IMG/VR virus record: IMGVR_UViG_3300045988_024527
Coordinates: 1-64,000 of that record
DNA length: 64,000 nt
Strand: one strand, 5' to 3'
From: a virus
Lineage: Duplodnaviria > Heunggongvirae > Uroviricota > Caudoviricetes
The translations under genes and the position numbers were made by a program. This document shows positions 31,314 through 61,923 of this stretch, one piece after another (positions within the stretch are counted from its first letter, which is position 1; the number at the start of each line of letters is the position of its first letter). Under the pieces are notes generated by a model, which saw only the letters and a list, made by a program, of their open reading frames with translations, was not told the DNA's origin and did no database searches.

Positions 31314-31697
31314 TCAAATACCTGTGCAGCTTCTGTTTTCTAAGAAATACTCAACACCATACATAGCTTTTTGCATCAAATCTTCTTTAAACTGGATACG
31401 GTGGTTGAGCATCGCCTGTACATCAATATCGTCATGGTGTTTCTCTTTAATGTTTGCAGATTGCAGGAAATACTCTGCAAGAACACGATACTGATAGTCA
31501 GTTACCTTATCAGTCATCTCTGTCAAAGATTCTTCAGAGATTGGTTTAAGTAACTCGCCTTTAGATAGCGCAACACCTTTTACAATCTGGCAAGTATCTT
31601 CTGGAACACCTGATAAGTCCACATTTGGGAGTTCTGTTGCATTGACTGGTAAATTCATTGCCATAACCATTGCAGCAGCTAATAAAATCTTTTTCAT
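31314..31697 (-). CDS. secreted/periplasmic protein with signal peptide
   Basis: N-terminus MKKILLAAAMVMAMNLPVNA is a typical Sec signal peptide; mature part unrecognised. Confidence 0.5.
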   Translation of the reverse strand: MKKILLAAAMVMAMNLPVNATELPNVDLSGVPEDTCQIVKGVALSKGELLKPISEESLTEMTDKVTDYQYRVLAEYFLQSANIKEKHHDDIDVQAMLNHRIQFKEDLMQKAMYGVEYFLENRSCTGI

Positions 31698-31744
31698 AAT
31701 GACCTCAAAGTTATATTAAATCTTGTATTACGTTGAGTATAAAA

Positions 31745-31787
31745 ATAAGCTATAACACCTGACTTGTCAACAGATTTTATAGCTTAT
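31745..31787 (-). promoter_or_regulatory. candidate promoter inside 11 bp perfect inverted repeat
   Basis: ataagctataa (31745-31755) and ttatagcttat (31777-31787) flank a 21 bp spacer carrying TTGACA on the - strand; weak TATTTT 17 bp downstream; upstream of gene 31314-31697. Confidence 0.4.
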
Positions 31788-31794
31788 TTGGCAG

Positions 31795-32057
31795 ATTTTT
31801 TATAAGGCTACTGCCATCCTTCCATACCAAGCCCTGCCGAACCGAACCATGCTTTGCCATACCGGACAATACCTGACTAGACATCACTTAAAAATCCTCT
31901 TAGAAGACTCTTAAGTGATGTAATCGAATTTTTATGTAGTTTCGATTAACTACCCATACCAAGCCTAACCTGACCGCACCAAACTTTACAACACCACACC
32001 ATACCTGACCATAACAAACCTCATTAAAAGACCCTGTTTAAAGACCTTTTAAAAAGG
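31795..32057 (-). repeat. modular intergenic repeat block A (CA-rich segments plus hairpins H1, H3, H2)
   Basis: Shares H1 (31882-31920), H3 (31922-31953) and H2 (32021-32057) with block B at 33221-33460, modules in different order. Confidence 0.6.
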
Positions 32058-32073
32058 AGCCTCCGAAGAGGCT
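32046..32073 (-). terminator. rho-independent terminator (- strand)
   Basis: Stem agcctc/gaggct with loop cgaa; on the - strand followed by ccttttt. Confidence 0.5.
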
Positions 32074-32084
32074 ACCTAGTCAAC

Positions 32085-32525
32085 TTAGAAAGGTTTTCTA
32101 CGTTGCTTGTTAATGTTAGCTTTCATAGCAGCTAAATGGTTTTGCTGTTCAATCAGTCGTGAACGTTCTTGATGACTAAGTGCCATAGTGTTCACATTCT
32201 CAATTGCTTGAGTGGCTTGTTTTAAAGCACGACCAATCTTACCAGACATTTTACGTTTTGCAATAGTTGCTTGATGTTTAGGTTCAACCACACGATAACC
32301 AACACCCATTGAAGCAACCAGATAAATCTTCTCTTCTTTAAGAAGTTTCTCAATAAACTTCTCAAGTCGGTTTAGACGTGTAAGTGCATAAGCCTTCATT
32401 TCATCTTCGTACTTAACAATGTCACCTTGATAAGTTGGCTTCACAATACCTAAGAAGGTGTCCATCTCAGAATGTGATACAGTGTCACCGTAACTAAACT
32501 TTGCTGCTAATGCTTTTGTATTCAT
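32085..32525 (-). CDS. hypothetical protein (146 aa), repeat-flanked cassette gene 2
   Basis: ORF track; basic C-terminus; no recognised motif. Confidence 0.5.
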   Translation of the reverse strand: MNTKALAAKFSYGDTVSHSEMDTFLGIVKPTYQGDIVKYEDEMKAYALTRLNRLEKFIEKLLKEEKIYLVASMGVGYRVVEPKHQATIAKRKMSGKIGRALKQATQAIENVNTMALSHQERSRLIEQQNHLAAMKANINKQRRKPF

Positions 32526-32527
32526 AA

Positions 32528-33133
<606 letters not shown>

Positions 33134-33220
33134 TTAGTTGATTGTTAAGTTGTTTGTAAAGAACCCTCAACAGAAGACTCTTTAGAAACTTGGTAGATTT
33201 TTAATGTGGCTACTACCATC

Positions 33221-33460
33221 CACCCATACCAGACCTAACTACACCTCACCCCACCTGACCCATACCTCGCATTACCATACCAAACCAGACCCCACCTCAT
33301 TAAAAGACCCTCTTAAAGACCTTTTAAAAAGGTAAGTCTCATTTTAATGTAGCTGAGACTAACTACCCACACCAAACCATAGCATACATCGCATTACCGG
33401 ACAGAACCATACTTTACCAGACATCACTTAAAAACCCTCTTAGAAGACTCTTAAGTGATG
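33221..33460 (-). repeat. modular intergenic repeat block B (CA-rich segments plus hairpins H2, H3, H1)
   Basis: H2 33298-33332, H3 33335-33366, H1 33422-33460; a further hairpin ggtgagta/tactcacc at 33463-33504. Confidence 0.6.
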
Positions 33461-33525
33461 CTGGTGAGTACCCGTTGGTTTATGCTGCTCAGTATACTCA
33501 CCAAATTTTCTATGTCAACAACTTT

Positions 33526-34662
33526 TTATTCGTAATCCCTAATAACTAGTCCAACAGGAAACTGTAAAGAACCCTTACGAGTCATCTTCTGGAACTGAAC
33601 AGTTAGAGGTTTCCCGATAAACTCTTCAGGATGTTCAGCAAGATACTGTTTCTTCTCATGAGTGGTCTTCCATGAGACATCTACAAAGACGTTAGGAAGA
33701 GTCTCTACAACGAACTTGCCATGACCACGTTTATCGGTCTTTACACCAGTAACTTTAAACTCTTCAGTGTGCATCTTCTTATGCTTAATCAAGAAGTATG
33801 AACGGTGACCACACTCGTAGAAAGATTCTTCAGAGATTGAGCGGTACATTGCACCTTCAAACTTAGCTTCAACCCACTTATCATGGGCTTCATCAAATTC
33901 TTCCCAAGAATTTACACGGATAGTCTGTACAGGAACCACTCGACAGGTATCCCCAAGCTCAACAATAGGTGAACTATCAATAACTTCACGACGCTCAGGC
34001 CAAGATTTTGAATTGTCACAGATATCATACCAGTAGAATTTAAGAAGGTGACGGTCTGGATTGTCAGCATTCTTAATCATAGATACAATATCTTCTAAGT
34101 CCCAACCATGAGCATAAATCTCGCCATCAAAGTCTTCAACTTGCGGGTGTAATTTAAGCAACAAAAGCAAATCTGGGATTAGTTCTGCTGGAACGTTGTA
34201 AACAGTATTCTCACGAGAATAAGCCGTAAAACTAACTGAATCAACATCTCTTGAAATTCTACAACGTACACCATCCAGTTTTGGTTGAGCATCAGCAGGA
34301 AATATCAAATACTTTGCATGACTAACCTTTGCAGCATCATGAGCAAGCTGTACACCTACCTTCTCAGTATTCTGTGCAGACTCTTTTGTGTAAGCATAAC
34401 CTTTACGGTCAACTTGCTTTTTATACTTAGCAGCAACTTCAAAGAGAGCTTGCTGTTCAGCATTACGCTCATTCTTTTTACCGATGTTTTTAGGTTCTGC
34501 TGTATACTCTTCAAACATCATCTTGCCATTTTCTTTACCGTAGGTTGTAATAACTTTGTTACCTATAGCACCACATGACCAGATGTTGAAGGAACCGTCT
34601 TTATTTTGTTTGTACAGTGTTGTCATTTTTAACCTCTGAGTGATACCAAGTATTGCAAGCAT
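33526..34662 (-). CDS. ATP-dependent DNA ligase
   Basis: Adenylation motif I AQPKLDGVRCRI (KxDG); 378 aa. Confidence 0.8.
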   Translation of the reverse strand: MLAILGITQRLKMTTLYKQNKDGSFNIWSCGAIGNKVITTYGKENGKMMFEEYTAEPKNIGKKNERNAEQQALFEVAAKYKKQVDRKGYAYTKESAQNTEKVGVQLAHDAAKVSHAKYLIFPADAQPKLDGVRCRISRDVDSVSFTAYSRENTVYNVPAELIPDLLLLLKLHPQVEDFDGEIYAHGWDLEDIVSMIKNADNPDRHLLKFYWYDICDNSKSWPERREVIDSSPIVELGDTCRVVPVQTIRVNSWEEFDEAHDKWVEAKFEGAMYRSISEESFYECGHRSYFLIKHKKMHTEEFKVTGVKTDKRGHGKFVVETLPNVFVDVSWKTTHEKKQYLAEHPEEFIGKPLTVQFQKMTRKGSLQFPVGLVIRDYE

Positions 34663-44038: not shown

Positions 44039-44067
44039 TTGACAATAGAGTATCAACAAACTAGAAT
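44039..44067 (+). promoter_or_regulatory. sigma70-type promoter
   Basis: TTGACA 44039-44044, 17 bp spacer, TAGAAT 44062-44067; about 35 nt upstream of gene 44104. Confidence 0.55.
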
Positions 44068-44103
44068 TGGTACTCTTCATAAATTGAGATAGAGGTTTAA
44101 ATA

Positions 44104-44961
44104 ATGTCTAAAGTTGTTAAAATGAAAGCTCCGGTAGAGAAGTACAATGGTACTGAACGTCAAACTCTGCGTTACCTTCTGAAAGATGTATGGTTTTATT
44201 ACCTGAACACTTCACCACGTCCGGGGAAAGGTAAATCCATTGACAAGAAATTCCCAGGAAAAGACTGTAACTACAGCGTATCAATTCTGGCAGAAGACGG
44301 TAACAAACTGTTTAAAGAGTTTACTAAGTCTAAGAAAAATCCAGAAGGCTGGGATAAAGTCACTACTGAAGCAGTTGATGCAGACGACTTCGAAGAGAAG
44401 TTTGGTTGTAAACCACCTTTTGAAGCAGACACTTACTACATCTTGAAAGTAAGTCGTGCAGCAGCTTATAAAGATGGTGCTGTATGGACAGCTAAACAGT
44501 CATTCCCTGTTATGCTTATTGAAGAAGTAAATGGTAAGCGTGTAGCTGTTAAGCAGCCGATGAAGAAAATCAAAGCTCAAGCATCTGATAAACATGAAGA
44601 TGATAAGAACTATGATGTAATTCATCCAGATATTGCAGTTGGCAACGGTTCTTTTGGTAGTGTGATTCTTTCTACTCACTTCTACACTTTTGAGAACAAT
44701 GTTCTGACAAAACCTATTCAGGAACAGTTTATCATTGATACTCTTGTACCTTACACTGGTGGTAACGGTGCTAACGGTGAACCTGAACTGGATGAAGATG
44801 AACTGGCTATGCTTGGTCTTGATGGTGTTGAAGATAACGGTGAAATCACTGAAGAAGACGCAACAGACCACAAACCTTCGAATAATTCTGATGATGGTGA
44901 CGATGAAGACTTGCCAGACCCAGATGACGAAGAAGATGAAGACTTCGATACAGAAGACTAA
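44104..44961 (+). CDS. putative single-stranded DNA-binding protein (acidic C-terminal tail)
   Basis: 285 aa with C-terminus DDGDDEDLPDPDDEEDEDFDTED as in phage SSBs; in replication cluster; not verified. Confidence 0.4.
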   Translation: MSKVVKMKAPVEKYNGTERQTLRYLLKDVWFYYLNTSPRPGKGKSIDKKFPGKDCNYSVSILAEDGNKLFKEFTKSKKNPEGWDKVTTEAVDADDFEEKFGCKPPFEADTYYILKVSRAAAYKDGAVWTAKQSFPVMLIEEVNGKRVAVKQPMKKIKAQASDKHEDDKNYDVIHPDIAVGNGSFGSVILSTHFYTFENNVLTKPIQEQFIIDTLVPYTGGNGANGEPELDEDELAMLGLDGVEDNGEITEEDATDHKPSNNSDDGDDEDLPDPDDEEDEDFDTED

Positions 44962-60088: not shown

Positions 60089-61870
60089 ATGAGTAAGTCA
60101 CTTTACGCAGTACCAGCAGGTCTTAATGCAGATGCTTACAAGGCATCACATATATATCAGTATCCAGATGCTACGCAATATCTTATGTTGAACCTGACAC
60201 CACGTAGTGACAAATGGTTTAACAGCCCCTTAGCAATTGATGGTGTAGTTGCTTTTGGTATTCAACGTTTTGTTAAAGATTACTTGATAGACCACTGGAA
60301 CGCCACTTTCTTTGAACGTGACAAAAAAGAAGCCATTGACGAAATCTTAGAAGTCATGAATGGTGTTCTGGGTAAAGATGCTATCGGTCGAGAGCATTGG
60401 GAAGCACTTCACGACTTAGGTTATCTACCAGTTGAAGTATACGCTGTAGAAGAAGGCACAGTCGTCCCTATGCGTGTCCCAATGATTGTCTTCCAGAACA
60501 CTGTTTCAGGTTTCCATTGGGTAGCAGGTTATCTGGAAGATGCTTTCTCTGCTGAGATTTGGAAGGCTTGCACTATTGCAACTATTGCATTGCATTACAA
60601 ACGTATCTGTAAGAAGTGGGCTGACCTTACTTGTGACAACGACTTGCATTTACCTTATCAGTGCCATGACTTTGCTATGCGTGGTATGTCCGGCTTTACT
60701 GATGACGCATTTAACGCTGTAGGCCACTTAACCAGCTTTAAAGGGACTGATAGCTTCCCTGCTGTATATACAGCTAAACGAATCTATGGACAGTCCTACC
60801 CAATCTCTGATATTGGTAGCTCTGTACCAGCCACTGAGCACTCTGTAATGTGTGCAAACATTGCTTGGGAAGGTGGTAATGAGTTGATTGAAGAAGAAAG
60901 ACGCTTTAAAGGTGAGTTACAAACCTTCCGTCGTTTCTTAACAGAAACTTATCCAACTGGTATTGCAAGTGTTGTTTCAGATACTTATAACTTCTGGAGA
61001 ACTGTGTCAGAAATCTTACCAGCACTCCGTAAAGAAATTATGGAACGTGATGGCAAACTGGTAATTCGCCCTGACTCTGGAGACCCTGTACATATTGTCA
61101 CAGGTTATAAAGCAATCCACTTAGAGTGTGCTAAGAAGGCTTATTACGAGCACCTAAGCAAGCTAGAGGCAAGTGACACAATGTTGAATGCTATTCTGAA
61201 CATGAAGCTTGAAAACATCAACTATGGTATTGCTGGATGGCTACTGTCAGAAGGCTACGAAATGGTTGTTGACAGAGAAGACTTTGAAGTTGCTGATACA
61301 GTGCTGTTGAAAAATGCTTATATGGTTGGTTCTGCAAACGTTGTAACACGTCCTGTAGCGGAGATTGATGGAGCTATCAAGACACTGTATAACATCTTTG
61401 GGGGAACTATTAACTCTAAAGGGTTTAAGGTACTGGATGAGCATATCGGCCTTATCTATGGTGACTCTATCACGCTGGAACGTGCAAACGAAATCCTGAA
61501 GCGTCTGTATGAAATGGGTTTTGCAAGCTCTAACGTAGTGTTTGGCGTAGGCTCTTACACTTACCAGTACATGACTCGTGACACCTTTGCATTTGCTGTC
61601 AAAGCAACTCTTGCAAGCATTGGTGGTAAAGAGATTATGCTTGCAAAAGACCCTAAAACAGATAGTGGTGTTAAGAAATCTGCCTTTGGTGGTGTAGCAC
61701 CTATGTGGGATGGTGACAAGCTGAAAGCTATAGATGGCTATGGATTCCAGAGTTTTGCAGATGTACTTGACCACCCAGCTTGTGCCTTACGTTTAGTCTT
61801 TAGTGACTCTGAGCAGTTCGGTTACACAACTCTTGGGGATATTCGAAATAATATTGACAAGCAGCTTTAA
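60089..61870 (+). CDS. nicotinamide phosphoribosyltransferase (NAMPT)-like protein
   Basis: 593 aa; type II PRTase-like regions (HDFAMRGMSG, SVPATEHSVM, GLIYGDSIT); paired with Prs-like gene. Confidence 0.7.
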   Translation: MSKSLYAVPAGLNADAYKASHIYQYPDATQYLMLNLTPRSDKWFNSPLAIDGVVAFGIQRFVKDYLIDHWNATFFERDKKEAIDEILEVMNGVLGKDAIGREHWEALHDLGYLPVEVYAVEEGTVVPMRVPMIVFQNTVSGFHWVAGYLEDAFSAEIWKACTIATIALHYKRICKKWADLTCDNDLHLPYQCHDFAMRGMSGFTDDAFNAVGHLTSFKGTDSFPAVYTAKRIYGQSYPISDIGSSVPATEHSVMCANIAWEGGNELIEEERRFKGELQTFRRFLTETYPTGIASVVSDTYNFWRTVSEILPALRKEIMERDGKLVIRPDSGDPVHIVTGYKAIHLECAKKAYYEHLSKLEASDTMLNAILNMKLENINYGIAGWLLSEGYEMVVDREDFEVADTVLLKNAYMVGSANVVTRPVAEIDGAIKTLYNIFGGTINSKGFKVLDEHIGLIYGDSITLERANEILKRLYEMGFASSNVVFGVGSYTYQYMTRDTFAFAVKATLASIGGKEIMLAKDPKTDSGVKKSAFGGVAPMWDGDKLKAIDGYGFQSFADVLDHPACALRLVFSDSEQFGYTTLGDIRNNIDKQL

Positions 61871-61884
61871 AAGTATATGATAAG

Positions 61885-61907
61885 AGGCTCCTACAGGAGC
61901 CTTTTTA
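61885..61907 (+). terminator. rho-independent terminator
   Basis: aggctcc-taca-ggagcct followed by ttttt. Confidence 0.6.
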
Positions 61908-61923
61908 ATTTCTGGAGAAAACT

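Follow-up and report, generated by a model that had tools for sequence, protein, structure and literature searches.

A candidate terminal hairpin and exit promoter in the inverted repeat that closes a type-II VIPR array of a Felix O1-like phage

In the systems called VIPR, for Viral Interference Programmable Repeat, the Vipr protein and its vrRNAs direct the transcriptional silencing of competing phages; the vrRNAs consist of 9-16 YNNGG repeats and an invariant 3' pseudoknot tail, and the accessory gene vap1 encodes a predicted DNA-binding protein, according to the available parts of the two preprints on the system (10.64898/2026.04.26.720920,.720927). VIPR was described only in 2026, and these parts do not describe how the arrays are transcribed, ended and processed; flanking hairpins, native promoters, terminators and the repeat studied here are likewise unmentioned in the available text (10.64898/2026.04.26.720920,.720927). 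We have analysed a 64,000-nucleotide stretch of phage DNA (hereafter the window; IMG/VR record IMGVR_UViG_3300045988_024527, positions 1 to 64,000), in which an inverted repeat on the minus strand (31743..31789) lies between the last vrRNA of a VIPR array and the next gene. We tentatively read this repeat, giving the idea slightly less than an even chance, as the terminal hairpin of the vrRNA array (a terminator, a processing site or an insulator) combined with an exit promoter, P2. The VIPR system itself is already published, and the repeat is a previously undescribed and fairly conventional piece of its regulatory wiring.

The window comes from a Felix O1-like phage, the region being 92-96% identical to that of coliphages and Salmonella phages (Felixounavirus, Ounavirinae). 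All genes around the repeat are on the minus strand and follow one another, in the order of transcription, as DNA ligase, a gene of 195-200 amino acids (aa), a 146-aa gene, the repeat, a 127-aa gene, a 70-aa open reading frame (ORF) and an XRE-type helix-turn-helix (HTH) regulator, with dihydrofolate reductase (DHFR) and thymidylate synthase (ThyA) further on. In a sequence search of the 200-aa protein against PDB, the upstream gene product matched the 'SUSP1 Vipr protein' (36pp_D) over residues 6-200 with an E-value of 9.9e-129. The sequence directly upstream of the repeat has a 5-nt periodicity (GGY NN) and is hypervariable among near-identical phages, while the promoter region is invariant. 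The original prediction had placed the repeat at the edge of a 'repeat block A', which is correct; given the GGY/NN tract, the Vipr match and the published description of vrRNAs, block A is the downstream vrRNA array. Judged from its sequence, the minus strand of 31789-33518 is a complete type-II VIPR locus with vipr, a vap1 candidate and four vrRNAs, whose tracts could be parsed into 11-15 units each, with hypervariable NN positions and scaffolds that are invariant among relatives. The type-II VIPR of phage SUSP1 resembles that of the window in its gene pair, GGY/NN pentamer tracts, pseudoknot tails, flanking elements and repeat with P2, but its vrRNAs are arranged as 1 + 3 rather than 2 + 2. 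In the GenBank records of relatives, the VIPR proteins carry only the label hypothetical, and the tracts are entered under 'DR_4' or 'repeat_region'.

Two 11-mers, ATAAGCTATAA (31745-31755) and TTATAGCTTAT (31777-31787), had been described around a 21-nt spacer carrying TTGACA on the minus strand, and all of these are present, the hexamer at 31770-31765. The repeat is larger than this, with perfect arms of 13 nt, AAATAAGCTATAA (31743-31755) and TTATAGCTTATTT (31777-31789); read along the minus strand, AAATAAGCTATAA is the 5' arm (31789-31777) and TTATAGCTTATTT the 3' arm (31755-31743). Beyond one mismatch, an inner stem ATCTG/CAGGT adds 5 further pairs, one of them G.U, and leaves a 9-nt loop (TTGACAAGT); when this inner complementarity is counted, the arms are 19 nt long, match at 89% and are 9 nt apart. 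First-order Markov simulations of the window gave an unremarkable expectation of 0.84 per 64 kb for repeats with 11-nt arms and a spacer of <=40 nt, and of 0.06 per 64 kb for repeats with 13-nt arms. As sense-strand RNA the repeat folds at -17.8 kcal/mol (z = -4.4), a stability reached by none of 200 dinucleotide shuffles of the 60-nt segment, and the antisense RNA fold is weaker (-14.1 kcal/mol); with DNA parameters the folding energy is -11 kcal/mol (z -3.5). The repeat begins at the very base with which the pseudoknot stem of the last vrRNA, A2, ends, a gap of 0 nt. The type-II tail of A2 (AAGGATGGCAGTAGCCTTATAAAAAATCTGCCA; 31821-31789, minus strand) corresponds to the pseudoknot tail of the preprint, as far as the available text describes it (10.64898/2026.04.26.720920), and compared with the paralogous type-II tail of vrRNA B2 it carries compensatory changes in both stems (TGGCAG/CTGCCA versus TGGTAG/CTACCA, and AAGG/CCTT versus GTGG/CCAC). 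Directly after this last vrRNA, the hairpin and its U-tract (UUAUUUUUAU) have the stem-loop and U-tract layout of a terminator. Without the A/U tracts the core hairpin folds at -10.5 kcal/mol, a value similar to those of the cassette's two clear terminators (-12.7 and -12.1 kcal/mol). No Rfam family matched within 31500-33700, and the tail with the repeat, searched in complete E. coli genomes as a mark of possible satellite vrRNA loci, was unmatched there.

The same DNA contains P2, a consensus-based sigma-70 promoter prediction: the promoter scan returned TTGACA-N17-TATTTT with 10/12 matches on the minus strand (31770-31742). Its -35 hexamer (31765..31770) is in the loop of the hairpin and within a promoter annotated in phage ASO1B, and the repeat is centred exactly on it. 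The -10 hexamer TATTTT (31742..31747), at a 17-nt spacing, extends over the final 5 nt of the 3' arm and into the T-run at 31745-31741. A TATACT follows at 31736..31741, 23 nt from the -35, and the start site is predicted at about 31735, just downstream of it; the ATG of gene 31697-31314 is 45 nt downstream of P2. The site is already annotated as a promoter in ASO1B, ASO1A and AYO145A, with the repeat itself left unannotated. The claim that it is the promoter of gene 31314-31697 therefore stands as a prediction (perfect -35, 17-nt spacer, acceptable -10, annotation in three relatives), while the control by a regulator that accompanied the claim fares less well, as discussed below. Promoter-like sites are not in excess in the region, with 6 found against 8.1 expected from shuffled sequence. 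A plus-strand promoter using the symmetric TATAAC was considered and rejected, the nearest -35-like hexamer being only 12 nt away. Our searches of the literature turned up neither a start-site map nor a transcriptome map for Felix O1-like phages, and the Felix O1 paper states that transcriptional regulation is unknown.

Across three genera (Felixounavirus, Mooglevirus and Suspvirus), at least 231 phage records, the model phage SUSP1 included, have the repeat as the exact 3' boundary of the vrRNA array. In SUSP1 the 47-nt repeat with P2 is identical base for base and stands directly after the fourth vrRNA. From the ligase stop codon to TATACT, the window is about 90-92% identical to Mooglevirus (Moogle, Silverhawkium, Sf17, KPS64, Sf18) and Suspvirus (SUSP1, SUSP2), and in the same comparisons the flanks reach about 86-89% in the ligase, about 72-75% in the HTH region and only about 34% in the 127-aa protein. 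A stretch of 95 nt, reaching from where the last tract ends to TATACT, shows 100% identity in all three genera, and divergence starts right after TATACT. Some members of the same genera, and even of the same species (Michonne, Sf15, ESh19, ESh22 and EP1), lack the cassette; in these phages a P1-type promoter (AAAGTTGTTGACA-N16-TATACT) comes after the ligase and immediately precedes the homologue of the 127-aa gene. By these comparisons, the repeat belongs to the VIPR cassette and not to the HTH operon. When the window (31736-33527) was compared with the loci numbered L025, L026, L027, L047 and L048 in our set, partial promoter duplicates (TGTTGACA ... TATACT) were found at both ends, which suggests that the cassette was gained or lost by recombination within the promoter. 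In cassette-less relatives the ancestral P1-type promoter has a -10 and a leader to which the TATACT and leader of P2 are homologous; P2 is therefore a hybrid in which a cassette-borne -35, spacer and TATTTT have been joined to a resident TATACT and leader. Presence of the cassette varies even within one species, Mooglevirus Sf17, of which Sf17, KPS64 and Sf18 carry it and Sf15 does not.

Every vrRNA of the window is flanked by a predicted sense-strand hairpin, and the six hairpins at the four vrRNAs have energies of -11.6 to -23.3 kcal/mol. The five sisters of the repeat, all on the minus strand, are HP-a(B) (33461-33421; -21.6 kcal/mol, z -5.3) and E2 (33332-33295; -14.6 kcal/mol, z -3.3) in the upstream vrRNA block, E3 (33189-33152; -13.6 kcal/mol, z -2.7) located 2 nt past the type-II tail of B2, E4 (32057-32019; -11.6 kcal/mol, z -2.0), which follows the vap1 terminator, and HP-a(A) between vrRNAs A1 and A2 (31921-31881; -23.3 kcal/mol, z -6.5). 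The last of these, called 'terminator' in the ASO1B annotation, has 19 bp with 3 G.U pairs; together with the repeat studied here, it makes up the window's two perfect 11-nt inverted repeats. The five sister hairpins are related in sequence, have 12-21 bp with 3-5 G.U pairs each, and are 5-11 kcal/mol weaker as antisense RNA; because they contain G.U pairs and are weaker as antisense, we take them as RNA structures of the minus-strand transcript, and as candidate processing or termination signals. The repeat and E3 each follow a type-II tail (at 0 and 2 nt) and share the apex 8-mer TCTGTTGA at nearly equal offset, with unrelated arms, a pattern in which the position and apex of the hairpin have been preserved and the stem sequence replaced.

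Dyads are found as well at the P1-type promoters of this phage group, which are spanned by repeats of 7-9 bp whose arms are wholly different in four phage lineages (TGGTGAGTA/TACTCACCA, CCTGACGGG/CCCGTCAGG, CCGGTAG/CTACCGG and TAGTGGG/CCCACTA; sites in the window at 33462-33503, in L025 at about 1878-1928, in L026 at about 1876-1925 and in L027 at about 1878-1930). Such covariation of the arms between phages speaks for base pairing rather than for sequence-specific recognition by a protein. One arm is in the spacer/-10 region, whereas its partner is transcribed, about 20 nt from the start, a placement that implies a hairpin which only read-through RNA or single-stranded DNA can form. In the window, the P1 promoter at the entry of the cassette is TTGACA-N16-TATACT (33491..33518, minus strand; 11/12 matches), with a 9-bp inverted repeat of its own (33503-33495 / 33470-33462) that extends across both -10 and start site. 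A further promoter of the window, TTGACA-N17-TAGAAT at 44039-44110 on the plus strand, has a 6-bp repeat (AGAGTA/TACTCT) across its -10, and the words GAGTA...GGTACTC are common to this promoter and the P1 repeat.

Variation within the repeat was followed in 22 IMG/VR loci, in the loci of about 25 GenBank entries selected for having the lowest identity, and in 8 true metagenome matches; most of what the metagenome scan with an 18-mer anchor picked up was unrelated and matched by chance. Among about 45 related sequences the arms are invariant apart from one A>G in DE7. The stem variants comprise an A>G of the inner stem, shared by at least 7 sequences, the arm A>G in DE7 and one U>C, and two of these three, both of them A>G, retain a G.U pair in the sense RNA only. 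Other variants concern the loop, the T-run (3, 5 or 6 T) and TATACT. In four loci with distant Vipr homologues (40-50% identity), the tails and flanks are unrelated to those of the window and were uninformative for the repeat. The metagenomic Vipr loci L033-L036 (homologues of 45-49% identity) have other array layouts, in line with the diversity reported in the available preprint text; L035 has at least 5 tracts separated only by GGTATTCAGTTGG, and in L036 the tails are followed by two GC-rich hairpins.

From its anatomy, its position at the tail, its linkage to the cassette, its predicted folds and its conservation, we infer termination or processing, promoter activity and a start site for the repeat as follows. 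In minus-strand transcripts of the array, the repeat would fold into an 18-pair hairpin beginning at the last pseudoknot base and followed by a U-rich tract, in the same slot as that of the five other vrRNA-flanking sense hairpins. This hairpin may end or process the array transcripts, being an intrinsic terminator of low strength, a nuclease site or both, and would thereby insulate the array from the next operon. The same DNA would be shaped into the sigma-70 promoter P2, with the -35 in the loop, the 3' arm and T-run serving as the -10, and the 5' arm as an A/T-rich upstream region. Transcripts from P2 (from about 31735) would begin downstream of the hairpin and escape it, and P2 might thus restore the 127-aa / HTH / DHFR / ThyA operon, which the cassette has parted from its ancestral promoter. 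The abutment on the last vrRNA pseudoknot and the context of a vrRNA array make a role at the RNA level at least as likely as an operator.

Several observations weigh against this interpretation. SUSP1 vrRNA1 matures without the repeat, according to the part of the preprint available (10.64898/2026.04.26.720920), and the repeat is thus dispensable for the formation of a vrRNA 3' end. The hairpin departs from a canonical terminator, with its G+C-rich stem and loop of 3-8 nt, in having G-C pairs at only 4/18 positions, a 9-nt loop and one internal mismatch, and it was called neither by our terminator scan nor by the annotators of ASO1B (TransTermHP, WebGeSTer). It is also a near-perfect palindrome in DNA, with 13 Watson-Crick arm pairs and one G.U in 18, against 3-5 G.U pairs in the sister hairpins; such perfect arms with a single G.U look more like a DNA palindrome than a structure of RNA only. 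The variant of L015 introduces an A.C mismatch into the stem, and no covariation was seen within the repeat among the related sequences inspected, which vary too little to decide the matter. Finally, all non-coding parts of the cassette outside the tracts are nearly invariant between genera, so the invariance of the repeat is not special.

Dyad operators over sigma-70 promoters are known from the lambdoid Cro/CI system, and long-spaced inverted repeats from the p4 sites of phi29. The repeat could similarly be an operator at which a dimeric protein, bound to both 13-bp arms, which enclose the -35 and extend into the -10, occludes RNA polymerase; candidates would be the cassette's Vap1, the XRE-type HTH regulator encoded in the downstream operon, or some further factor of phage or host, and we regard this explanation as possible but doubtful. 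The likeness consists of a dyad over the core promoter, at a position typical of repressors, and of an XRE-family HTH gene in the driven operon. It is strengthened by the perfect Watson-Crick pairing of the arms, with the single substitution of DE7 among the related sequences inspected, and by the predicted DNA-binding proteins encoded on both sides (HTH_3, E 6e-10, and Vap1, itself a predicted binder). However, 34 bp separate the centres of the 13-bp half-sites and the arms are not palindromic in themselves, an unusual arrangement for a HTH or winged-helix dimer, and the spacer is self-complementary, which an operator does not need. No second operator was found either: in the 64-kb window there is no other copy of the 13-mer arm within 1 mismatch, the nearest sites having 2, the 11-mer arm has 3 other 1-mismatch matches against 2.3 expected by chance, and neither the window nor the loci of cassette-less relatives hold the arm motif as an extra operator site. 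A single genomic site would nevertheless fit a dedicated regulator. The original prediction had proposed a promoter controlled by a repressor or activator, possibly the HTH protein of the phage, and this control is unsupported: the recognition helix of the HTH protein (ISQxRVSNI) is identical in Michonne, ESh22, Sf15 and ESh19, which have no repeat, and the repeat is inherited with the VIPR cassette. Autoregulation by the HTH protein would moreover lead one to expect a site at both promoter types, and the repeat is not common to both; an activator is unnecessary given that the -35 of P2 is already perfect. For the conserved XRE HTH protein, a better candidate operator than the 13-bp repeat is a short A/T-rich dyad in the leader of the 127-aa gene (31709-31730; ATATAcaa..ttATATAGG-like), which could also be a 5' stabilising hairpin. 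This leader dyad is kept in phages with and without the cassette (L025 1897-1918, L028 about 2593-2616) and is perfect in Michonne (CCTATATA/TATATAGG). LexA, CRP and a good IHF site were judged a poor fit by eye (CTG-N9-CAG here, N10 for LexA). A more specific form of the idea, that the repeat is a specific DNA-binding site of Vap1 by which the VIPR cassette controls the downstream early/middle operon, we hold to be quite unlikely. Vap1 and the repeat do always co-occur, which is trivial for two parts of one cassette; the fold matches of Vap1 are weak (E > 0.2), and an autoregulating Vap1 would be expected to act upstream of vipr-vap1, not downstream. A milder alternative is that the repeat and its five sister hairpins are candidate pre-vrRNA processing signals of type-II VIPR arrays.

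Unlikely as well, in our judgement, is that P2 is simply a promoter and its dyad functionless, either a by-product of A/T-rich elements (an UP-like region, the -10/T-run) or a leftover of the recombination that joined the end of the cassette to the resident TATACT and leader, conserved along with the whole non-coding scaffold. The near invariance of that scaffold between genera, the partial promoter duplicates that flank the cassette and the statistical ordinariness of an 11-nt repeat all fit this explanation, but a perfect 13-nt repeat is rare in such a window even before its 5 inner pairs are counted, the shuffled segments never fold as well, and the dyad is centred exactly on the -35 and has its slot and apex in common with a sister hairpin. 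Extrusion of the repeat as a DNA cruciform, which would put the -35 into a single-stranded loop and switch P2 off depending on supercoiling, seems to us highly improbable. Its arms are A/T-rich and perfect, the fold with DNA parameters is better than chance, and synthetic cruciform-regulated promoters have been reported; on the other hand, a centre of 21 nt (or 9 nt) is unfavourable for extrusion, we know of no natural precedent in phage sigma-70 promoters, and nothing in the data specifically calls for such a switch. The terminal hairpin with exit promoter, which we favour, and the operator are not mutually exclusive, and the probability that remains belongs to combinations of these explanations and to possibilities not listed here.

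Compact phages have terminator/promoter junctions in which a hairpin with a U-tract ends one unit and the next promoter lies in the same few dozen bases, and the repeat is comparable to them; it differs in that its -35 is in the loop and its -10 in the 3' arm and U-tract, and in that its A/U-rich stem fails the standard criteria for terminators. A junction to be compared with it is found at 61854-61915 of the window (plus strand), where, no more than 4 nt after a near-consensus promoter (TTGACA-N16-TATGAT), there begins a GC-rich terminator hairpin (AGGCTCC TACA GGAGCCT TTTTT), inside which the promoter's own transcripts would start. In CRISPR arrays, structured repeats flank the guides in a multi-guide transcript. 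The six predicted sense-strand hairpins around the four vrRNAs recall this arrangement, but they differ from one another in sequence, a nuclease dedicated to their processing is not known, and cleavage at them is only a proposal. If the repeat does act as a terminator or processing hairpin with an exit promoter, this would explain how an operon can accommodate a portable cassette of two genes and four guides while the genes beyond the cassette are not silenced, and the six flanking hairpins would become candidate maturation signals of vrRNAs. Natural boundaries or insulators of this type would be useful parts for engineering VIPR arrays. Were the repeat instead a site for Vap1, it would be the first defined DNA target of a Vap protein. 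As gene regulation in its own right, the repeat is fairly ordinary.

The remaining features of the locus, all on the minus strand, are given here in the order of transcription. The upstream vrRNA block (33220..33461) contains, besides HP-a(B) and E2, tract B1 (33421-33367), a B1 type-I tail doubling as terminator (33368-33326) and tract B2 (33294-33220); the B2 type-II pseudoknot tail (33223-33191), paralogue of the A2 tail, comes next. Tract B2 shows a one-base register shift after its seventh unit (TATGG GTCAG...), which reflects either an irregular unit or an effective repeat count below the parsed 15. The vipr gene (33115-32528) encodes 195 aa, its mechanical ORF with a GTG start extending to 33130. 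The vap1 candidate (32525-32085; 146 aa) was assigned by position only, immediately downstream of vipr as in SUSP1 and SUSP2; a single-sequence model of its product (predicted local distance difference test score 68) has three helices, a beta-hairpin and two long helices, a winged-helix-like prediction that, with the weak Foldseek matches noted above, speaks neither for nor against DNA binding. An intrinsic terminator predicted by scan and fold (32073-32058) separates vap1 from E4 and from vrRNA A1 (32018-31920; tract 32018-31954, type-I tail 31955-31920). After HP-a(A), the last tract, A2 (31881-31818), has about 12 YNNGG repeats with NN positions that are hypervariable among relatives. Under the published 1-nt-skip rule, the vrRNAs of the window matched neither P2 nor any other part of the window better than expected from shuffled sequence. 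Downstream of the repeat, the first gene of the predicted P2 operon (31314..31697; 127 aa) has an N-terminus that resembles a signal peptide by eye (MKKILLAAAMVMAMNLPVNA), and it is followed by the 70-aa ORF (31312-31100) and by the XRE-type HTH regulator (31107-30808; the Pfam HTH_3 match given above). The Felixounavirus segment is also present, at 97-98% identity, in records named after phages of other hosts, MG065668 and MG065664 ('Campylobacter phage A126/A132') and GU169904 ('Staphylococcus phage SA1'), which are probably mixed or misassigned assemblies.

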